From NCBI GenBank assembly GCA_050015395.1, contig JBEKBM010000034.1:1-20208 (forward strand): a stretch of 20,208 bases of DNA, given 5' to 3'. Each line of letters starts with the position of its first letter. The first letter of the stretch is position 1. The notes under the pieces were generated by a model that saw only the letters and a program-made list of their open reading frames with translations, did not search any database and had not been told where the DNA came from. The stretch is from Candidatus Bathyarchaeia archaeon (lineage in GTDB: Archaea > Thermoproteota > Bathyarchaeia > Bathyarchaeales > Bathycorpusculaceae). The position numbers were made by a program, and so were the translations under genes. Below, in pieces: positions 521-20,208 of this stretch.

Positions 521-1528
521 ATGTCAGACATTGTTACAGTGAAGAATCTTGTTGAAGTTTATTCTGACGGCACAAAAGCCGTTGATGACATTTCCTTCAG
601 CGTGCAGGAAGGAGAATTCTTCGGTTTTCTAGGGCCAAACGGCGCAGGAAAAAGCACAACAATCAAGATTTTAACGACGCTCCTCAGAAAAACATCTGGC
701 ACCGTTACCGTCGCAGGATACGACGTTGAGAAGCAAGCAGCTGATATCCGCAAGATCATCTGTGTCCAAAGCCAAGAAACAACCGTCGACGGCGACCTAA
801 CCGGCAGGGAAAATATAACGCTTCAAGGCCATTTCCACCAGATGAAAGGAGATGAAATCAAAAAACGAGTTAACGAGCTTCTGGGTCTTGTGGGGCTTGA
901 AGAAGCCGCCGACAGACGTGGCAGAAACTACTCCGGCGGCATGAAAAAACGCCTTGACCTCGCCACCGCCCTTGTCCACAAGCCCAAAATCCTGTTTCTA
1001 GACGAACCAACAACAGGTTTAGACCCACAATCACGCGCAGCCATTTGGAGTTATCTGGAAAAACTAAACAAAGAAGAAGGCATAACCATTTTCTTAACAA
1101 CCCAGTATCTGGAAGAAGCCGACAAACTATGCAAAAGACTTTCAATAATCGATTCTGGAAAAATAGTTGCAAGCGGCTCACCCATCGAGCTAAAACGTCA
1201 AATTGGAGCAGACTCCATCAGAATCTCGCTTGAAAACTGCCAAAAAGACAGCCCTAACGCAAAAGAACTCATCAAAACCATGACAGGCGTCACCGAAATA
1301 ATAGATTCAGAAGAATGCCTCACAGTTTACGCCAAAAACGCAGGTCTCCTAATAGCAGATATCGTGAGAGCACTAGACAGCAGCGACATTCGGATCGCGT
1401 CAGTAACGTTTTCCTCCCCATCACTGGATGACGTCTTCATGAAGCACACCGGCAGACGAATAAGAACCGAAGAACTCGTCAAGGCTCCAAGCGCCATGTA
1501 CGGCGGAAGATTCGGTGGAAGGAGATAA
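521..1528 (+). CDS. ABC exporter ATP-binding protein (DrrA/NodI-like, C-terminal DUF4162-like region)
   Basis: Walker A GPNGAGKST, signature YSGGMKKR, Walker B LFLDEPTTGLD, TTQYLEEAD, C-terminal PSLDDVF. Confidence 0.93.
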   Translation: MSDIVTVKNLVEVYSDGTKAVDDISFSVQEGEFFGFLGPNGAGKSTTIKILTTLLRKTSGTVTVAGYDVEKQAADIRKIICVQSQETTVDGDLTGRENITLQGHFHQMKGDEIKKRVNELLGLVGLEEAADRRGRNYSGGMKKRLDLATALVHKPKILFLDEPTTGLDPQSRAAIWSYLEKLNKEEGITIFLTTQYLEEADKLCKRLSIIDSGKIVASGSPIELKRQIGADSIRISLENCQKDSPNAKELIKTMTGVTEIIDSEECLTVYAKNAGLLIADIVRALDSSDIRIASVTFSSPSLDDVFMKHTGRRIRTEELVKAPSAMYGGRFGGRR

Positions 1529-7070: not shown

Positions 7071-8318
7071 TTACAGTAGTGACTCGTAGATTTTGCTTGT
7101 TTGCTCAGCGACTTTTCGCCAAGTAAAATACTCCAGCACTCTTTGCCTCCCGTTTTCGCCCCAGTTTTTGGCTTTTTCAGGGTCACGCAGCGTCTCGTTT
7201 ATTCCCCATGCTATGTCCGCGGGGTCTTCACCGTTAATGTGCATGCCGTTTTGGTCTGGACCGCTAGGTATCACTTGCTCTTTGAAGCCTACAACGCCTC
7301 TTGCGCCGACTACTACTGGTTTCTCCATGGCCATCGCCTCTAAACTTACAATTCCGAACGGCTCATAAATTGATGGAAAAACACACACGTCAGAGGCGGC
7401 GTAATGAAGAATCCGTTCTTTTTCAGTTACAAAGTCGAAGCGGTAAACAATTTTATCCTTAATGTTTAATCTTTCTGCTGTTTCAATAATGTCCGCTTGC
7501 TCGTCACCTTTGCCTAAAATAACCAGTTTAGTATTAGGGTACTCTTTGAGAACCATAGGCATCGCCTGCAAGAGGTTTCGTACACCTTTCACCCAAGTAA
7601 GCCTTCCAACGAAAAGCAGCATATTCCAACCGTCTGGGATGCCGTATTTTTTTCTGATGGTATCAACATCTTCTTTTTGTACTTTTTGCGGATCGTACGT
7701 TTCAGGGTCCACACCGTTCCAGACAACGCTGATTTTTGAGGGCGACCAGCCATGTTTTATGAGGTCTTCTTGCATAGCGTAGCTGACAGTTACTATGCGG
7801 TCGGAGTTTTGAGCCATTGCGCCCTCTAAATGGGACACTACTTCGGAGCCTTGCCCGCCGCTTCTGCCCCATTCTGTACTGTGCGTGTGAAAAACTACGG
7901 GTATCTTGGTTTCGTTCTTAATTACTAAGCCTGCAATACTGCTCAGCCAATCGTGAACGCAGACGACGTCAAAATTGTATTTCTCTTCTTTAATTAAGGC
8001 ATTGATGAATTTGGTTGAGCTCAGGATGTTGTAGATGAAGATGTCGTTGAAGAGTTTGATGTTAGTACCCCATTTTTTTAGGTCATCCACCACAAAGAAG
8101 GGCCAGATGTTTGTTGCGTCAGCTATAAGTGGCCTGTGGACTTCTACTCCTCGCAGGATTTCTCTTGTTTTTAACCCGTTATTATTAAGAGTGAAGACTG
8201 AGACATCGTGTCCAATGTCAACGAATTCATGGGTGATGTTTTCAGCGTAAGTGCCTAAACCGCCTACAAGTTGAGGCGGATATTCATAAACGAAAAAGCC
8301 AATTCGCAAAACCGTCAC
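7071..8318 (-). CDS. GT4 family glycosyltransferase (glycogen synthase-like)
   Basis: EYPP..VGGLG, HDW, NGVD, VGRL..VKG, PSIYEPFGIVSLEAMA. Confidence 0.9.
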   Translation of the reverse strand: MTVLRIGFFVYEYPPQLVGGLGTYAENITHEFVDIGHDVSVFTLNNNGLKTREILRGVEVHRPLIADATNIWPFFVVDDLKKWGTNIKLFNDIFIYNILSSTKFINALIKEEKYNFDVVCVHDWLSSIAGLVIKNETKIPVVFHTHSTEWGRSGGQGSEVVSHLEGAMAQNSDRIVTVSYAMQEDLIKHGWSPSKISVVWNGVDPETYDPQKVQKEDVDTIRKKYGIPDGWNMLLFVGRLTWVKGVRNLLQAMPMVLKEYPNTKLVILGKGDEQADIIETAERLNIKDKIVYRFDFVTEKERILHYAASDVCVFPSIYEPFGIVSLEAMAMEKPVVVGARGVVGFKEQVIPSGPDQNGMHINGEDPADIAWGINETLRDPEKAKNWGENGRQRVLEYFTWRKVAEQTSKIYESLL

Positions 8319-13169: not shown

Positions 13170-13826
13170 ATGTTTGAAGCGGTTATTTTTGACTGGGACG
13201 GAACCCTAGCTGACACGCGGCAAGTAATCGTTATCTCATTTCAAAAAGCCCTAAGCGAAATAAACTGCAAAGTTAGCAACGAGTACATTGAACGCCGTAT
13301 CGGAATTGGTGCAGCAGACACTTTCCGCGACTTGTTGCGGTCAGCTAAAATGCAGTTTGACGAAAAATTGATCCAGCACTTAGTTGAGCGCAAGAGTCAG
13401 CTTGAAATCGAGCTAACAAACCAAGTGGGATTGTTTTCGGGCGCCGAGGAACTTCTTGAAGCGTTACATGGCAAAGTGAAAATGGGTTTGGCATCAATGA
13501 ATAACCGCTCAGTAGTCATCCACTTGCTCAAAGCAAAAGACCTGAAAAAATACTTTGACGCGGTTCTTACGGCTGAGTCAATTTCACATTCGAAACCAGA
13601 CCCAGAAATTTTTCTAAAAACCGCTTCTAACCTGAAAACAAGCCCTGAAAAATGCGTAGTTATCGAGGATTCGATTTTCGGTGTCAAAGCCGCTAAATCA
13701 GCAAACATGGGCTGTATTGCGGTTCTAACAGGTGTTTATTCTAAGGTGGAACTTGAAAAGGAAAAGCCTGATTTGACCGTTAAAACGTTAAAAGATAAGC
13801 AAATCATTCCTTTTATTCTGCAGTAA
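13170..13826 (+). CDS. HAD-superfamily phosphatase (beta-PGM/CbbY-like)
   Basis: FDWDGTLAD, KPDPEIF, IEDSIFGVKAAKSANM. Confidence 0.92.
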   Translation: MFEAVIFDWDGTLADTRQVIVISFQKALSEINCKVSNEYIERRIGIGAADTFRDLLRSAKMQFDEKLIQHLVERKSQLEIELTNQVGLFSGAEELLEALHGKVKMGLASMNNRSVVIHLLKAKDLKKYFDAVLTAESISHSKPDPEIFLKTASNLKTSPEKCVVIEDSIFGVKAAKSANMGCIAVLTGVYSKVELEKEKPDLTVKTLKDKQIIPFILQ

Positions 13827-13870
13827 TATAACCTTGTGGTTCCTCTTTTCTGGAGCAAGATTTATACTTT

Positions 13871-15214
13871 TTATTCATTGTTTCTCGACCCGAATTCTTC
13901 AATCATTTGTCGTTTTAGAGCAGCGTGTAACTGGTGAAGTTGGCTATTCTCTATTTGTTCCTGATCGATAATTGTCGCATTAGACTTACTTAAGGCATCT
14001 TTTGTCAAGGTTTCTTCTGGGTTAAGACCCCAAGCACGCATGATTTCTTTGAGAGCGTCAATTTTGTTGACTCGTGTTTTCGGTCTTATGCATAGGCCAG
14101 AAGCTACGTATATCCCGCGTAAGAATTCAGTACCCTTCATTTGAATGTCATCGTAGGTGCTGACTGTGTGACCCATCATATATTCAATGTAATCATCCTG
14201 AACCTTCAATGCGGTTAATACAGTCTTGAAATATTTGCGGATACTATGAGCGCAGAGGTCATATCGTCTTCCTATTAATGAATCAGCAGAAATAAGCCCT
14301 GTCTTCAAATAGAGTTTATGAACGGCGTTGTAAATGGTAGCTGGCGATGATGGCAAAGGTTTTCGTATTTTAGCCGACCTTATCAAGGGCGATTCATCAT
14401 TGATATTTTCTGGTGGAATTTTGGCTGTACCTTTCCTTCTCATTTGCAGGTAAAGCTTCAGGTATGTAACAGCTTCTTGTCCGAGAAATGTGTCGTAGTC
14501 ATGGTATTTGCCCTTAGTTATTTCAGCTTCAACATGGATATGTAACGGTATCATGTTAGCTTCCAGGTCCTCTTTTACATGGCGATAAAGCAGTTTTGAA
14601 AGCGTTCCTTCTCTGAAGCCGCCGGTAGCAAGCGCCGATGTTATAACTTTTTCACGTAAATCAGCAACATCTAAAATTCTTATCAATTCTTCAGGCGTAG
14701 GTGAACGGATTTTATAGGCAGGTCGATTAGGCAAAGTAGAAGGCAAGTCAAGTCTCAGGCCGTTGCTGCGGAATAACGATTTTACACCTTTAATGAGGGC
14801 TTTTATTGCACCATTTGTTAAGTCATCAGCTTGAAGCTCACCAACATAGTCATCAAGTAATCTGTTATACTTTGCAACAGCTTTAGGATTAGGGTCTCCG
14901 TCCTGGTCTTTGCAGCTTTGAATCATTTGGTCAGGCTGAATATTAACCCAGTTACAAAAACGCCAGATGCCATAACCGTATAAGTAGAGAGTGCCTTTGC
15001 TTCCGCTTCTATACCGTAATAGATATTTAGCCAGTTCCGTCGTAGTCGCATTAGTTGAAATAAAAGGAATCAAAACCTGCATTTTTCCAGTACAACTGTC
15101 GATTATGTACTGCTGAAGCTGCCTTTCTGCCTTTGATTGCGGTGCCAAGAGCATAAATTTTCTTTCGCATTCTTGAGCTAAATGTCGAGTCGAGTTTACA
15201 CTAGATTTCAGCAT
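13871..15214 (-). CDS. Tyrosine recombinase/site-specific integrase
   Basis: Complete catalytic set: GFREGTL (R), ITKGK (K), AHSIRKYF (H-x-x-R), YMMGH (H), STYD (Y). Upstream helical core-binding region. Confidence 0.93.
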   Translation of the reverse strand: MLKSSVNSTRHLAQECERKFMLLAPQSKAERQLQQYIIDSCTGKMQVLIPFISTNATTTELAKYLLRYRSGSKGTLYLYGYGIWRFCNWVNIQPDQMIQSCKDQDGDPNPKAVAKYNRLLDDYVGELQADDLTNGAIKALIKGVKSLFRSNGLRLDLPSTLPNRPAYKIRSPTPEELIRILDVADLREKVITSALATGGFREGTLSKLLYRHVKEDLEANMIPLHIHVEAEITKGKYHDYDTFLGQEAVTYLKLYLQMRRKGTAKIPPENINDESPLIRSAKIRKPLPSSPATIYNAVHKLYLKTGLISADSLIGRRYDLCAHSIRKYFKTVLTALKVQDDYIEYMMGHTVSTYDDIQMKGTEFLRGIYVASGLCIRPKTRVNKIDALKEIMRAWGLNPEETLTKDALSKSNATIIDQEQIENSQLHQLHAALKRQMIEEFGSRNNE

Positions 15215-15794
15215 TGTTTTTTCCTTCCCTTTTGGTTGTTTTGGGCTGAGTTTTTCGCTCCTTTTGGCTTGGAGCGCGAACTCGAATCTTACCTTTGTTT
15301 TGTTGGCAATTTAAATACCATCTTGAATTTTTTTGTAATGGTAGCGCATGCATCTCTAGGATGCAACTTTTAAGAATAACAACGCCATTGACACCGCCAA
15401 GATTGCCTGGAATAGCCCTGTCATGCTCAATAAGCATCAGCTCGTCATTCTGCTTTGTCAGCCAGCCAATAGTCTCGCGCTCTACAGCCTCCGCTACAGG
15501 TTCAAAAATATTTTTGAATAAAACATGGTCCTTATACCTTACGTAAACAAGGATTAGGGGGCTAGCGCCAGCGGCGTTCTCAACCGACTTGCCTACACTT
15601 AAACTGGCTTCATGTCTGCCAAATATGCATGCCGCTTTAGAAGGTGCAAGATCAACCCTTCCCTCCCCAGCTGCTAAACCGCTTTTACTGCCTTTACCAC
15701 GACCATCCAAGGAAGGCCCTGTAATGTAAATCTCAAGAAACCTCCTTTGCAGATTCATACTCATGATGCGACGATGCGAAGAATGGGTAGCCAA
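15201..15794 (-). CDS. Hypothetical MGE protein; conserved-looking core VYVRYKDHVLF...RETIGWL (small beta-barrel-like); start uncertain
   Basis: ORF overlaps the integrase start. The core resembles small proteins of archaeal integrated elements (recognised from memory). The first ~75 aa look low-complexity or non-coding. Confidence 0.6.
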   Translation of the reverse strand: MATHSSHRRIMSMNLQRRFLEIYITGPSLDGRGKGSKSGLAAGEGRVDLAPSKAACIFGRHEASLSVGKSVENAAGASPLILVYVRYKDHVLFKNIFEPVAEAVERETIGWLTKQNDELMLIEHDRAIPGNLGGVNGVVILKSCILEMHALPLQKNSRWYLNCQQNKGKIRVRAPSQKERKTQPKTTKREGKNNAEI

Positions 15795-15906
15795 TAGCGT
15801 TAGTATTACTATTCTGGTTTTTCCGGTCTGAGCGAGAGCATTCTGGGAGTCTGAAGTTGAGGCACATGACGCATTTCTGTTCTGCTCTGTCTATTGCTTT
15901 TAGCAG
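15733..15906 (-). CDS. Small Cys-motif ORF (57 aa, CTG start), putative zinc-binding protein
   Basis: GAGGAGG RBS 7 nt upstream. Translation (M)LKAIDRAEQKCVMCLNFRLPECSRS...AIGYPFFASSHHEYESAKEVS*. Overlaps the stop of the 268-aa gene. Not in the ORF track. Confidence 0.45.
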   Translation of the reverse strand: MLKAIDRAEQKCVMCLNFRLPECSRSDRKNQNSNTNAIGYPFFASSHHEYESAKEVS

Positions 15907-16706
15907 TTGGTTTCCTCCTCTTTGTTATGTGGAATTATGTTTTGCGTTTGTAGAAGTCTAATGAGCGAGATTAGCAGGGCTTCAATTGTTTTTTGGCTTT
16001 GAGCATGGGTCATGGAGCCTTGCTCTATTACTTCAAGTCTCTTCTTGATGTCTGGCAGTCCGAGAAAGCGTTGCATGTCCGGTACTGAGAGTTTGAGTTC
16101 CAACACTCCTTTTTCTGGGGTATCGTCACGAACTAGAACCGCGCCCCATTCCATCTGCAAGAGCAAGTCTTTAGGAAGAAATGTAGGGTCACCAGGTTTG
16201 ACCCCGCCTTCCACAACGTTCACATTTAATGTAGCCTGATTAGTGATGAGCTGGGCAAGATCATTTTTCCAACCATAATTAGTCAGCTGATTAGATAGCC
16301 ATTCCCGCCAACCACTTGAATGAGGCCAGAAAATCAGATGCCCATTAGGGTGTATTTGACAACTACAGGGATCACTTTGTTTAAGCGAACCTATCTGTTT
16401 CATCCCTGTGCGAGAATTAATGACAGGGGCTTTCAAAGTTGTCAATGCACTTGGCGTTACCCACCACTCATAAAAAAGCTTACCGTGAGCGAAAATACGA
16501 CCACTTCGCCCTCGTATAAACTTACTTGGTTTTCTTGCTTGTGATAATACCTTCCACACATAACCGACGCTGGTTCCTATTTTCTGGGCTATCTCAGAAG
16601 CATCTGATTGAGGGTTGTTTGTCCGATATTTAATAATGAATGCTTTCTTGTTGCTTGGCTTACCTTCAGTCGTAGGTAAGTCCTTACCATTCGTGTTATC
16701 GGTCAT
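15900..16706 (-). CDS. HTH-containing hypothetical protein
   Basis: N-terminal HTH NPQSDASEIAQKIGTSVGYVWKVLS, an unknown alpha/beta central domain with RDDTPEKGVLE, and a C-terminal coiled-coil-like helix. Confidence 0.75.
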   Translation of the reverse strand: MTDNTNGKDLPTTEGKPSNKKAFIIKYRTNNPQSDASEIAQKIGTSVGYVWKVLSQARKPSKFIRGRSGRIFAHGKLFYEWWVTPSALTTLKAPVINSRTGMKQIGSLKQSDPCSCQIHPNGHLIFWPHSSGWREWLSNQLTNYGWKNDLAQLITNQATLNVNVVEGGVKPGDPTFLPKDLLLQMEWGAVLVRDDTPEKGVLELKLSVPDMQRFLGLPDIKKRLEVIEQGSMTHAQSQKTIEALLISLIRLLQTQNIIPHNKEEETNC

Positions 16707-16734
16707 TGTTCCTTTTCTCCTGGAAGAAACTGCT

Positions 16735-16905
16735 TCATGCTTGAAACGCGGTTTCCTCTCTATATTTGGATAGAAATTCTGTTAAGGCAACCCTGGCGAC
16801 GTGGCTTATTGATTTGTATCGTTTAGATTTTATGAGGCGTTCAATGTCCTCAGAATCCTTTCTTGAAATTCGTAGGCCGATCATTCGCTCGTATTCAGGT
16901 ATCAA
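16735..16905 (-). CDS. Ribbon-helix-helix (CopG-like) regulator, 56 aa
   Basis: TTG start after an AGGTG RBS. MIPEYERMIGLRISRKDSEDIERLIKSKRYKSISHVARVALTEFLSK... matches the RHH strand-helix-'YxSxSxxxRxAL' pattern. Not in the ORF track. Confidence 0.85.
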   Translation of the reverse strand: MIPEYERMIGLRISRKDSEDIERLIKSKRYKSISHVARVALTEFLSKYREETAFQA

Positions 16906-17000
16906 TCTTTAACACCTGTTAACTTGCGCGTTAACCTTATATATAACGGTAGTCATCGTTCTAAACTGTTAACACCGTTACTAATGGAGATGGTTTAAAA
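16906..17000. promoter_or_regulatory. Divergent promoter/operator region
   Basis: Palindromic TATA TTATATATAA at 16937-16946. GTTAAC at 16918, 16930 and 16968. TTAACACC at 16909 and 16969. Confidence 0.65.
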
Positions 17001-17765
17001 ATGATAGTTGAAATGAAGTATTCTGAAGAAATAATTAAAAGGTTAGCAACAGCTAGTGTGCCGTTAAGCCCTTATGACCTAAAAAAGGAAACAAAGTTTC
17101 CGTATAGTGGAATACGAGAAACTATCAAGCAACTATGCAATGAGGGTTACGTTCGACTTACGAGTACTGAACAATCAAAAAAAGGCGGCGAAAGGACACT
17201 CTACACTTTAACCTTCAAAGGAGTCCTCAAATACCTTGCCGGGTTCAAGATTCTTCCTGATTCCTTCGCTGAACTAACACAAAAAGACATTAAGGAATTC
17301 TATGAAAAATTTGATAAAGAGCACAAATCAGGCATATTAAACGCGTTAGAAAGGCAAGGCGAAATTCTCAATTACGTCCCTTTCCAAGAGTGCCATTGGC
17401 TTTCGGAACGTATCCCTGGACTTACCGGGTCATTTGTAACTGGAGCCGATTTTCTGCTCAAGCAGCCGTTAAGCGGTGAATCTTTAATTGCTGATGCTGT
17501 CAGTAAGTATATCTCTGATCCTAACTACGAGCCTTATGCTGCAGTCGACGACGTGCTGTTCCTTCGTGATATTGAAAATTCAAGTTTGAGGGTTACGTTT
17601 GGAAAGTTCTTTCTTCGTACCATGGTTAGCAGGATAAAAGACGGAGCAGAGAATGAAAACGGAAAACTGCGACAATTTGCTGAGAGAATTCTTGATGAGA
17701 GCAGAATAGAAATAACCCAGTTGGAACATGCTGTAAGCTTGTTTAGCTTGCAGAAAAAAGGTTAA
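17001..17765 (+). CDS. Winged-HTH (PadR/MarR-like) regulator with unknown helical C-terminal domain
   Basis: LSPYDLKKET..PYSGIRETIKQLCNEGYV...GGERTLYTLTFKG. Confidence 0.8.
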   Translation: MIVEMKYSEEIIKRLATASVPLSPYDLKKETKFPYSGIRETIKQLCNEGYVRLTSTEQSKKGGERTLYTLTFKGVLKYLAGFKILPDSFAELTQKDIKEFYEKFDKEHKSGILNALERQGEILNYVPFQECHWLSERIPGLTGSFVTGADFLLKQPLSGESLIADAVSKYISDPNYEPYAAVDDVLFLRDIENSSLRVTFGKFFLRTMVSRIKDGAENENGKLRQFAERILDESRIEITQLEHAVSLFSLQKKG

Positions 17766-17968
17766 GGGTTCCTTGTTCTGATTGCTGTCTTTGGCCAACG
17801 TGCGAGCACAGAAAAACTACGCACATCCAGAGGCCTACAATGTACGAGGTAACCAGCGTATCAGCAATGCTTAACACGATTAACATGTTTACCATGCTCA
17901 GGAAAGAACCCTCTGCAAAATCAGTAATCCATCAATACTCGCGGAGGTTACCTCAGTTCTCTACTTTT

Positions 17969-18270
17969 TTATTCAAGGATGATTTTGCCTGTTTCTTCGA
18001 TTCTCGCTACTTGCCAATTGTATTTGTTCTGCGCTACTGCTTTGCTTATTTGCTCTCTCAATAGGTTAAGTGATGTGCAATTGTATTCTCTGGTTAACAG
18101 GATTATGTCGCTGATTGCCTCTTTGCTTGTCATACCCTTGAACACTACGAGTCTATTGGGTGAAATATTGGTTTGACGTCAAACGGGTCAAGTTTTAGGG
18201 CTCTGAGGGATGGGCAGATTGCAGCGCGGAAGACTTTTTCAGCTTCTTTTCTTCCTTTTTCTACAGCTAA
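17969..18270 (-). pseudogene. 5'-truncated, frameshifted Endonuc_Holl/COG4741-like (Holliday-junction-resolvase-related) gene
   Basis: LAVEKGRKEAEKVFRAAICPSLRALKLDPFDVKPIFHPID, then a 1-nt shift near 18149-18150, then VVFKGMTSKEAISDIILLTREYN...LREQISKAVAQNKYNWQVARIEETGKIILE*. Matches the family's P.D....PIDFVVF.G and 'i..av....y.W...R' motifs. Confidence 0.75.
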
Positions 18271-18333
18271 TAATTTATTGTTTTAGCGGAAGCTGTTTAC
18301 CACTTGTATCATAAGGATTAGAATGTAAATATA

Positions 18334-18349
18334 GGATTACTTTTTGGAT
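18334..18349 (-). repeat. Eroded terminal CRISPR repeat remnant
   Basis: GGATTACTTTTTGGAT versus repeat GGATCACCTTTTTGGAC, one spacer length (35-36 nt) before the first full repeat. Confidence 0.75.
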
Positions 18350-18384
18350 TTCCAAGCCGCATCGGCGTAATCGGTCTACTCAGC

Positions 18385-20208
18385 GTGTTCAATCCTTGTT
18401 TTGATGGATCACCTTTTTGGACTATTCCAAACTTGAATCAGCTTGACCCCGTAACCCGGTTTCAATCCTTGTTTTGATGGATCACCTTTTTGGACTTGAC
18501 GGAAGCAGAGGCAGAGTTTATCGGTGCTGAGTTTCAATCCTTGTTTTGATGGATCACCTTTTTGGACTTTACTATTTCAGTCGGAACCAATAAATCAAGC
18601 ACGTTTCAATCCTTGTTTTGATGGATCACCTTTTTGGACTGCGCATATTGAGAACTATTGCCAAAGGTACACTTTTGTTTCAATCCTTGTTTTGATGGAT
18701 CACCTTTTTGGACCTTCTCTCTGATAGTAGCAGCCCATTTGAATATTAGTTTCAATCCTTGTTTTGATGGATCACCTTTTTGGACATGCCTAGAAGAGTT
18801 ACGATAGCACCGAGAATACCAAGTTTCAATCCTTGTTTTGATGGATCACCTTTTTGGACTCTATCATTGTTGTTCATTCTCATTTTTACCCATGTTTCAA
18901 TCCTTGTTTTGATGGATCACCTTTTTGGACAAGAACAGGTCTAACCAGAATGTAGTGTAAGAAGTTTCAATCCTTGTTTTGATGGATCACCTTTTTGGAC
19001 TACCTTGCTATATCTCTCTTATCTAAAAGGTGAATGTTTCAATCCTTGTTTTGATGGATCACCTTTTTGGACCATAGGAATCTTAGCGCTCATAGTCAAA
19101 GTTAAATACATGTTTCAATCCTTGTTTTGATGGATCACCTTTTTGGACTTGTTAGTGGATTTAATCAACTTGCAACTGGACTGTTTCAATCCTTGTTTTG
19201 ATGGATCACCTTTTTGGACACCCTTATACTTCCATTCGGATGGGTATGTAGTACTGTTTCAATCCTTGTTTTGATGGATCACCTTTTTGGACTATGTATT
19301 CCGCAAAAATCACAGTTGTTTTTAATGTTTCAATCCTTGTTTTGATGGATCACCTTTTTGGACTCGCTCTTCAGTGGATGCAATAGCAGTTTGCCCGATG
19401 TTTCAATCCTTGTTTTGATGGATCACCTTTTTGGACACCAAGGCGTTTGCCGATAATATTCCCTAAGAAACGTTTCAATCCTTGTTTTGATGGATCACCT
19501 TTTTGGACAGGGTTCGGTTTAGGCATACTGTTTCACGGTTGGTGTTTCAATCCTTGTTTTGATGGATCACCTTTTTGGACCTTCTCTCTCTCTCTTTTGA
19601 GTACGACGTATATAGTTTCAATCCTTGTTTTGATGGATCACCTTTTTGGACGATTGTTACATACTCTCTTATTATTTTAGTAGGTTGTTTCAATCCTTGT
19701 TTTGATGGATCACCTTTTTGGACAAAGGAAACAGTCTTGATATTCTACATTCAATAGGGTTTCAATCCTTGTTTTGATGGATCACCTTTTTGGACAGTTT
19801 TTCCCTGTCCTCTATCGCCGTCTATAGCAACGTTTCAATCCTTGTTTTGATGGATCACCTTTTTGGACACTTACACCAGCAACACATACGGCAGCAAGGA
19901 TTTTCCTGTTTCAATCCTTGTTTTGATGGATCACCTTTTTGGACCATGATTTAGAAATGGTTGCACGTTCTGACGCGTGTTTCAATCCTTGTTTTGATGG
20001 ATCACCTTTTTGGACGAAAAGATTAACAGTCGAAGACGAAGTTGTCCCGTTGTTTCAATCCTTGTTTTGATGGATCACCTTTTTGGACTATGCCGTCATA
20101 GCTTTCCATGCTAAAGACGCATTTCCAACGAGTTTCAATCCTTGTTTTGATGGATCACCTTTTTGGACAGCCGGCAAATTGGGGTTTATTGTGTGTTCGA
20201 GGCAGGTT
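18385..20208 (-). CRISPR. CRISPR array, repeat GTCCAAAAAGGTGATCCATCAAAACAAGGATTGAAAC (37 nt, minus strand); 25 full-length repeats, 25 spacers of 33-43 nt, truncated by the window end
   Basis: Plus-strand repeats start at 18385/6 (variant GTGTTC), 18459, 18531, ... 20132, and a 26th begins at 20206. The ATTGAAAC 3' end and the degeneration at the left end indicate minus-strand transcription with the leader beyond the window. The repeat resembles Cas6-processed class 1 (I-B/I-D/III) repeats. Confidence 0.98.

Follow-up and report, generated by a model that had tools for sequence, protein, structure and literature searches.

A type I-B CRISPR-Cas locus as probable cargo of a probably provirus-derived island in a Bathyarchaeia genome

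An integrated island with a CRISPR array inside

The window analyzed here, 20,208 nt in length, is the whole of contig C34 (JBEKBM010000034.1) of G000, a genome bin of a Candidatus Bathyarchaeia archaeon (GCA_050015395.1; 2.59 Mb in 42 contigs, 98.9% complete). Bathyarchaeia are an abundant uncultured group of sediments and peat. The right-hand part of the window holds a tyrosine integrase gene, several small genes and a CRISPR array, called array B, as seen in Table 1. These were found to form one end of what is very probably an integrated, provirus-derived island of ~26.6 kb, with the integrase as its recombinase and a CRISPR-Cas system as its cargo. The initial annotation, made from the window alone, had described a minimal integrase element next to an array and had proposed the array as possible cargo. 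The cargo proposal was supported, since array B lies inside a segment that is bounded by attachment (att) repeats and ends with the integrase. The word "minimal" had to be dropped, as the island spans ~26.6 kb and has a viral large terminase gene at its far end.

Boundaries and empty sites

The gene order Trm1-ProC-HAD is conserved at 14/14 loci of relatives, and integrase, cas and cargo genes of contig C35 (described below) follow it in 0/14. Four of these relatives, G019, G003, G016 and G021, have ProC proteins that are 88-95% identical. By blastn, C34:13840 continues directly into C35:13516 in 4/4 of them, and the single-copy host genes of C34 and C35 are neighbors in all four. At the junction, the two matches of each relative overlap by 14 nt. 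The corresponding 14-mer, TATAACCTTGTGGT, is found at C34:13827-13840 (attL) and at C35:13516-13529, which is the attR that the initial annotation had proposed to seek past the leader. There are exactly two copies of it in the 2.59-Mb genome, where ~0.02 would be expected by chance. Site-specific integration is thus indicated by direct repeats at both ends and by an empty site with one copy of the 14-mer in 4/4 relatives, the copy having one mismatch in two of the four.

The insertion consists of C34:13841-20208 (6368 nt), a cas block (6712 nt, a length taken from C4:82187-88898 on contig C4 as a proxy) and C35:1-13515, for a total of ~26.6 kb. Its target is the intergenic 14-mer after HAD and not a tRNA gene. 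From left to right, the island contains attL, the integrase module, the array, the leader, cas4-cas2-cas1-cas6b-cas3-cas5-cas7-cas8b, unknown genes, ParB-like genes, ABC/GNAT genes, the large terminase gene and attR. The initial annotation had seen no sign of RNA-guided integration. This agrees with our Pfam, PHROG and PADLOC scans, which found no transposase families among the island open reading frames (ORFs), and with ends that are direct repeats beside a tyrosine integrase.

Taken alone, the window has nothing that ties the array to the integrase genes, and the initial annotation had also considered that an integrase element, here ~4.5 kb, inserted beside a pre-existing host array. This explanation is ruled out for practical purposes because the 14 relatives' loci have neither integrase nor cas genes after HAD. 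They have no array there either, and the sole second copy of the att core is past the cas genes and the terminase gene, not between the winged helix-turn-helix (wHTH) gene and the array.

Contig joins and copy number

C34 terminates 40 nt inside the CRISPR leader. ORF, tRNA and Pfam scans detected no tRNA genes and no cas genes in the window. The earlier statement that there are no cas genes on this side is, therefore, correct for the window. It does not hold for the element, since contig overlaps point to cas genes just past the leader, a place that the initial annotation had left open for them. The last 77 nt of C34 (one repeat and 40 nt of leader) are identical to C4:82110-82186, and this overlap resembles a node of an assembly graph. 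When the ends of all contigs were scanned, the first 87 nt of C35 proved identical to C4:88899-88985, at the cas7/cas8b boundary. The first 1808 nt of C35 hold a cas8b that is 93.5% identical to the cas8b of C4. Between these two copies, mismatches increase steadily toward the 5' end, and similarity ends at the start codon. The order and orientation of both overlaps agree with a path from C34 through the leader and cas block to C35. We infer this physical link from the terminal overlaps, synteny in relatives, the att pair, leader extension in two other assemblies and depth.

The leader extension comes from two independent metagenome contigs, in which the last spacers of array B are followed by 46 and 50 nt more of leader (at least 86-90 nt in total) that are identical to the C4 leader. 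Three contigs were obtained when metagenomes were scanned for a spanning contig with the wHTH protein as query, and none of them passes the leader. For word depth, contigs of four peat runs were placed on C4:82150-96000. The shared leader-to-cas8b block had a depth of 34.8 in run X3, 307-324 in X12, 55.7 in X15 and 42.4 in X20, compared to 12-20, 165-175, 37-43 and 22-32, respectively, for the C4-specific flank. The shared block is, thus, at roughly 1.5-1.9 times the flank in 4/4 runs, a hint that it is present in two copies. The X15 and X20 contigs (12,838 and 12,133 nt) cover the cas block and ~4.7 kb past the leader start (C4:82150) on the array side, and the X3 and X12 contigs end ~32-34 nt past the leader start.

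Another possible explanation is an assembly or binning artifact, in which C34 and C35 come from a different strain or have no cas block joining them, and array B is an orphan with nothing but a leader in common with the C4 locus. In favor of this, every one of the contigs stops at the leader, contamination of the bin is 3.3% and contigs are no proof of copy number. However, the host genes of C34 and C35 are neighbors in 4/4 relatives, both contigs end in the same cas block with matching orientation and no strain duplicate of C34 was found elsewhere in the bin. The depth of the shared block is about twofold in 4/4 runs, and the stretch from HAD to the trailer was recovered at 0.93-1.00 of its words in 24 peat or wetland runs. 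An artifact is, on this evidence, very improbable.

The array and the type I-B genes

Array B has 25 repeats of 37 nt, 24 of them identical and the leftmost with two mismatches, and 24 spacers of 33-43 nt. The reverse complement of its repeat has ATTGAAAC at its end, which indicates that array B is read from the minus strand in the direction of the integrase genes. The same repeat is found in only one other place in the genome, array A on C4, with 35 repeats. This sister array has its leader and cas genes to the right, and so the trailer of array B is on the left and transcription runs toward the element. Here our results agree with the initial annotation, which had also called the array homogeneous; its figure of ~570 bp for the gap between the wHTH gene and the array is corrected to 620 nt.

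On its right side, array A adjoins a leader of 122 nt, and next to this is a complete minus-strand operon of type I-B with cas4, cas2, cas1, cas6b, cas3, cas5, cas7 and cas8b (NCBIfam; Cas6b by Pfam). The cas3 gene carries HD and helicase domains. All eight genes of the type I-B set are on the C4 block that is common to the island, and the island's own Cas8b is encoded on C35 (PADLOC Cas8b1, 1.7e-151). The C4 locus with array A, the leader and the eight cas genes covers C4:79638-90707 (L010, L011) and has no integrase adjoining. It sits between the HMG-CoA reductase and acetyl-CoA synthetase genes. Since these two genes are ~50 nt apart in G013, the C4 locus is itself an insertion.

Arrays A and B have 0 spacers in common, and a duplication of the whole array is, therefore, not visible. 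Within array A, the 39-nt spacers 8 and 9 have the same sequence, and one spacer-repeat unit is thus duplicated (C4:80184-80298). The initial annotation had suggested that the spacers be mapped to viral data, and this gave no targets in the searched loci and phage records. The 58 spacers of G000 (34 from array A and 24 from array B) and 157 spacers from related arrays had, after masking of the arrays, 0 matches of at least 24 nt in the genome or in any of the loci retrieved for comparison. The same spacers had 0 matches of at least 22 nt in 77 IMG/VR loci, and neither the array nor the integrase matched any of 50,697 phage records.

Cargo genes on C35

After cas8b, C35 encodes a Flg_new-repeat protein (C35:2276-3712), three proteins of 778, 183 and 264 aa without matches and a zinc-ribbon protein. 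This stretch of unknown genes takes up ~7.5 kb of the island. C35 also has overlapping ABC-ATPase and GNAT genes (phrog_11143), a ParB-like gene with a duplicated ParB fragment and, at C35:11332-12984, a gene for a 550-aa large terminase (Terminase_6N and 6C above cut-off; phrog_979, 6.9e-108). A 145-aa gene adjoins attR.

Of the hallmarks of a head-tailed provirus, the large terminase was found, and a major capsid protein, portal or tail was not found by Pfam or PHROGs. The features on which the term "provirus-derived" is based are, therefore, the terminase, the ParB/ABC/GNAT genes and the family to which the integrase belongs. A terminase gene without capsid genes could mean either a decaying provirus or a helper-dependent element. 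A defective provirus, with its capsid and tail genes lost or replaced, is most likely, because the integrase and terminase ends match those of full head-tailed proviruses of related archaea.

Related integrase loci

Arrays or cas genes beside the integrase were seen in 0/20 loci of relatives, 0/5 IMG/VR loci and 2/80 loci of GTDB species. The association between integrase homologues and CRISPR that the initial annotation had brought up is, therefore, absent from 78/80 loci and present in two, G061 and G062. Both of these have the same integrase-array-I-B cas architecture as G000, at other chromosomal sites. Since 78/80, 20/20 and 5/5 loci do without it, CRISPR is an occasional cargo and not a trait of this integrase family. 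The family itself belongs to head-tailed proviruses, given that contig C157 of G018 has this integrase, a major head protein, a portal and a TerL homologue within ~31 kb and that G021 is similar.

G062 is a complete genome (CP170178.1). Its unit is 41.0 kb long and is bounded by an exact 20-nt repeat that equals the 3' end of tRNA-Asn. The unit contains ParB, ABC/GNAT, Terminase_6C, helicase, scaffold, major head, tail-tube and neck genes, and the structural genes are followed by cas8b to cas4, a 17-repeat array, six ORFs and the integrase gene. The integrases of G062 and of the G018 provirus, which is without CRISPR, share 72% identity, and both proviruses use the same tRNA-Asn. The integrase adjoins an intact tRNA-Asn in G018 and a partial copy in G062 (L156:13237-13313, L034:3457-3533).

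The G061 island is between ribosomal protein genes and tRNA-Gln, with its integrase end abutting the tRNA. It contains a 12-nt repeat pair, AbiEii, two resolvase-like nuclease genes, cas8b to cas4, a 51-repeat array, a wHTH homologue, the partner gene and the integrase gene. The AbiEii toxin gene has a 211-aa gene upstream (L146:14946-18274). The two nuclease genes are in tandem just before cas8b and are related to archaeal Holliday junction resolvases. G000 was tried as an empty site for the G061 island and rejected, since the two flanks map to different G000 contigs. A search with phrog_979 found no terminase near the G061 and G062 islands; with Terminase_6C, one was found inside the G062 unit and, for G061, on another contig only. 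The att cores of the G000, G061 and G062 islands are all different. As a cargo, CRISPR-Cas is, thus, occasional but recurrent, and it occupies a single position, with structural or accessory genes on one side and the integrase module on the other. Among I-B loci with a resolved trailer flank, 3/4 adjoin this integrase family.

Several points weigh against the reading of the region as a provirus-derived island with CRISPR-Cas as cargo. No single contig was found to run from array B through the cas block into C35. With a shared block of ~7-8 kb, a crossed arrangement (C34-cas-C4 right and C4 left-cas-C35) is compatible with the assembly, and contig depth is not the same as copy number. Most integrase loci in other species are without CRISPR. 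The 12-nt repeat of G061 has ~0.3 expected occurrences and could be due to chance. No spacer target was found in the data searched, and no portal, capsid or tail genes were recognized among the island ORFs by Pfam and PHROGs. Finally, the order on IMG/VR viral contigs is ParB-ABC-GNAT-145aa-TerL, whereas that of the island is 145aa-TerL-ParB fragment-ParB-ABC-GNAT. The terminase-ParB order is, therefore, rearranged in the island, and the duplicated ParB fragment marks the rearrangement.

Origin of the two I-B loci

The island and C4 loci are near-identical from the leader into cas8b. Their similarity is bounded by the trailer repeat and the cas8b start, as in a cassette, and the gradual rise in mismatches toward the 5' end of cas8b resembles the edge of a conversion tract. 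This could mean that the island integrated without CRISPR-Cas and that the array-cas cassette was later copied in by recombination from the C4 locus, which has no integrase next to it. However, the same gene order is present at other sites in G061 and G062, with Cas proteins that are ~55-84% identical to those of G000, which speaks for an association of long standing. Compared to G013, the C4 locus is an insertion in its own right. This I-B cas7 is present in 3/40 relatives, so there is no sign of an ancestral host locus, and the two arrays share no spacers. A later capture from C4 is, therefore, considered unlikely.

The island is still best explained as a provirus-derived element that carries CRISPR-Cas. 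For the C4 locus, a tentative and somewhat doubtful reading is that it is a domesticated copy, either seeded from the proviral copy or still exchanging with it, so that adaptive immunity in this genus would have arrived by virus and later become chromosomal. With its nearly identical second copy that has no integrase, the genome may have been caught during an exchange of sequence between a mobile locus and a chromosomal one. The finding is also a warning for annotation, as arrays at contig ends can hide duplicated cas operons.

Proposed mechanism

In the mechanism that we propose, a working integrase would have joined the attP core to the 14-nt attB after HAD, leaving the direct repeats that are seen at the two ends. 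The small conserved partner protein may help to direct recombination, and the divergent pair of small gene and wHTH gene probably controls the element. Array B would be transcribed from its right-hand leader, with Cas6b expected to cut within the repeat. Cleavage inside the repeat by Cas6b is established for type I-B systems generally. By analogy to such systems, the I-B complex with Cas3 would destroy matching invaders, and cas1, cas2 and cas4 would permit new spacers to be acquired. The cargo could, in this way, protect both the host and the island against competing viruses.

Comparison to known systems

Provirus-borne type I-B systems have been described in haloarchaea (PMC12596717, PMC11705971). 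The proviral I-B system of Haloferax lucentense is reported to lack cas1, cas2 and cas4, and the authors read the haloarchaeal systems as mobile defense modules spread by viruses (PMC12596717). As far as these descriptions go, the G000 island resembles the haloarchaeal case in having an effector operon and an array in an integrated archaeal provirus, with a second I-B locus in the same cell. Unlike in H. lucentense, genes cas1, cas2 and cas4 are part of the cas block that is assigned to the island. The host also differs, being a peat Bathyarchaeia archaeon, and the G000 island is without recognizable capsid or tail genes.

For Bathyarchaeia viruses, a type IV-B system, mini-arrays of 2-4 repeats, Cas4 and a Cas2-like nuclease have been described, and some of the viral repeats are identical to those of the host (Duan et al. 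2024, PMC10848311). The host class is the same as here, and CRISPR parts are again found on viral DNA. In contrast to those viruses, as the main text presents them, the G000 island has a 25-repeat array and a full I-B set for interference and adaptation. The term "type I-B" has 0 occurrences in the main text of PMC10848311 and none in a 2026 provirus survey. In the literature searches and the article text consulted, no description of a complete I-B system in a provirus of Bathyarchaeia came up. The island adds a Bathyarchaeia case to the provirus-borne type I-B systems already described.

In pNOB8-type archaeal integrases and bacterial genomic islands, the integrase gene remains intact on integration, which often takes place at the 3' ends of tRNA genes. 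The G000 island is similar to these in its intact integrase gene at one end and its short direct repeats, and tRNA targets are used in G061 (tRNA-Gln) and in G062 and G018 (tRNA-Asn). It is unlike the pNOB8 type in its target, an intergenic 14-mer after HAD, and the likeness drawn here is one of layout. In SSV-type elements, attP is inside the int gene and integration splits it. The G000 int gene, in contrast, is whole (447 aa), and the att core is 30 nt past its stop codon.

Phage-inducible chromosomal islands and other satellites usually keep small terminase or capsid-remodeling genes and not the large terminase. Like satellites, the G000 island has an integrase and regulators without capsid genes and has kept packaging genes. 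Unlike them, it has a large terminase, and decay of a full provirus explains its content equally well. CRISPR-associated transposons combine Tn7-like genes with a nuclease-deficient effector, and casposons have Cas1 and a polymerase between inverted repeats. The G000 island differs from both in its cas3 with HD and helicase domains, its direct-repeat ends and its tyrosine integrase.

The att repeats and empty sites go beyond gene neighborhood in placing what is probably a whole CRISPR-Cas system inside an integrase-bounded, most likely virus-derived island. Virus-borne spread of CRISPR-Cas is directly testable in Bathyarchaeia, with this I-B system being rare in the genus (3/40 relatives) and 3/4 of its loci with a resolved trailer flank lying beside this integrase family.

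Integrase and neighboring small genes

Tyrosine recombinases have as their hallmarks R, K, H-x-x-R, H/W and a nucleophile Y. The integrase is a weak match to integrase models, namely Pfam PF00589 (20.6 bits, with a cut-off of 27.1), phrog_1 (2e-8) and NCBIfam XerA (7e-8). With 40.3 and 27.2 bits, the homologues from G061 and G062, respectively, exceed the PF00589 cut-off. In an alignment of 91 family members, R201, K234/K236, H323, R326, H349 and Y354 are at least 97% invariant, and the box-I Arg aligns with that of XerA 5hxy. Judged from these residues, the 447-aa protein is taken to be an intact tyrosine recombinase. The family was found in 42/61 genomes searched (relatives and G000), often in multiple copies and as fragments. 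Many of the matches in relatives consist of the C-terminal ~130-190 residues alone, some with internal stops and many located where a contig ends. Decay of copies, or breaks in the assembly at repeated elements, probably accounts for them.

A homologue of the partner gene is directly upstream of the integrase gene in 19/20 loci of relatives and in 64/100 loci overall. Conservation is confined to residues ~79-160, and the true start of the gene may be internal. The protein had no matches in Pfam, PHROGs, NCBIfam or PADLOC. Its AlphaFold model is a small beta structure of modest confidence (predicted local distance difference test score of 67.6). Foldseek searches of the PDB with this model gave nothing at E <= 0.001, the top rows being ribosomal proteins and Hfq at E ~0.2. 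In the ESM Atlas the protein falls into unnamed, mostly viral clusters at 0.92, which serves as a lead only. The protein may act in recombination directionality or in DNA binding.

The initial annotation had described an intact integrase, minus-strand genes upstream of it and a divergent wHTH gene, and all of these are present, the wHTH assignment having weak support. Matches of the wHTH protein to HTH_27 (E = 7e-4) and HTH_34 (4.5e-3) are both below the Pfam cut-off. Distant homologues with 24-30% identity occur in 9/100 integrase loci, including the CRISPR-bearing island of G061, and the protein presumably regulates the island. A ribbon-helix-helix (RHH) label had been given to the 56-aa gene that heads the minus-strand set. 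This label was not confirmed, as there is no Pfam match and the single pointer to such a fold is a match of 16 bits to CdrS, a regulator of the RHH type (E = 0.009), which falls well short of the cut-off. The 268-aa protein has a homologue in 1/100 integrase loci. Window genes other than those for the integrase and its partner are seldom conserved across integrase loci. The three of them that lie between the partner gene and the array, with the divergent wHTH gene among them, probably have regulatory roles.

Table 1. Features at the island end of the window (positions in C34)
Feature	Position	Strand	Evidence or remark
Host HAD-family hydrolase	13170..13826	+	Pfam HAD_2, 3.9e-39; last host gene left of the island
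attL core TATAACCTTGTGGT	13827..13840	+	Directly 3' of the HAD stop codon, 30 nt past the integrase stop codon
Tyrosine integrase, 447 aa, taken to be intact	13871..15214	-	phrog_1, XerA, catalytic residues
Integrase partner gene, 197 aa	15201..15794	-	Homologue upstream of the integrase in most loci
268-aa protein, possible N-terminal HTH	15900..16706	-	Weak PHROG repressor/MarR matches, E 0.01-0.09
56-aa small protein, heads the minus-strand set	16735..16905	-	No Pfam match
Divergent 254-aa protein, putative N-terminal winged helix	17001..17765	+	HTH_27 and HTH_34, sub-cut-off
CRISPR array B, 25 repeats and 24 spacers	18386..20168	-	Trailer at 18386
Leader, first 40 nt, then contig end	20169..20208	-	Identical to C4:82147-82186

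Other integrases are present in the genome. A paralogue with 47% identity is at C4:125121-126335 (L013:10110-11522, minus strand), ~1 kb from the end of C4, with two small ORFs upstream and an HTH regulator nearby. It probably marks one end of a further element of the same family. More distant integrases are on contigs C8 and C11 of G000. Outside the island, window positions 524-1481, 2124-2584 and 7083-8308 have 67-80% identity to contigs C32, C10 and C13 of G000 and correspond to paralogous genes.

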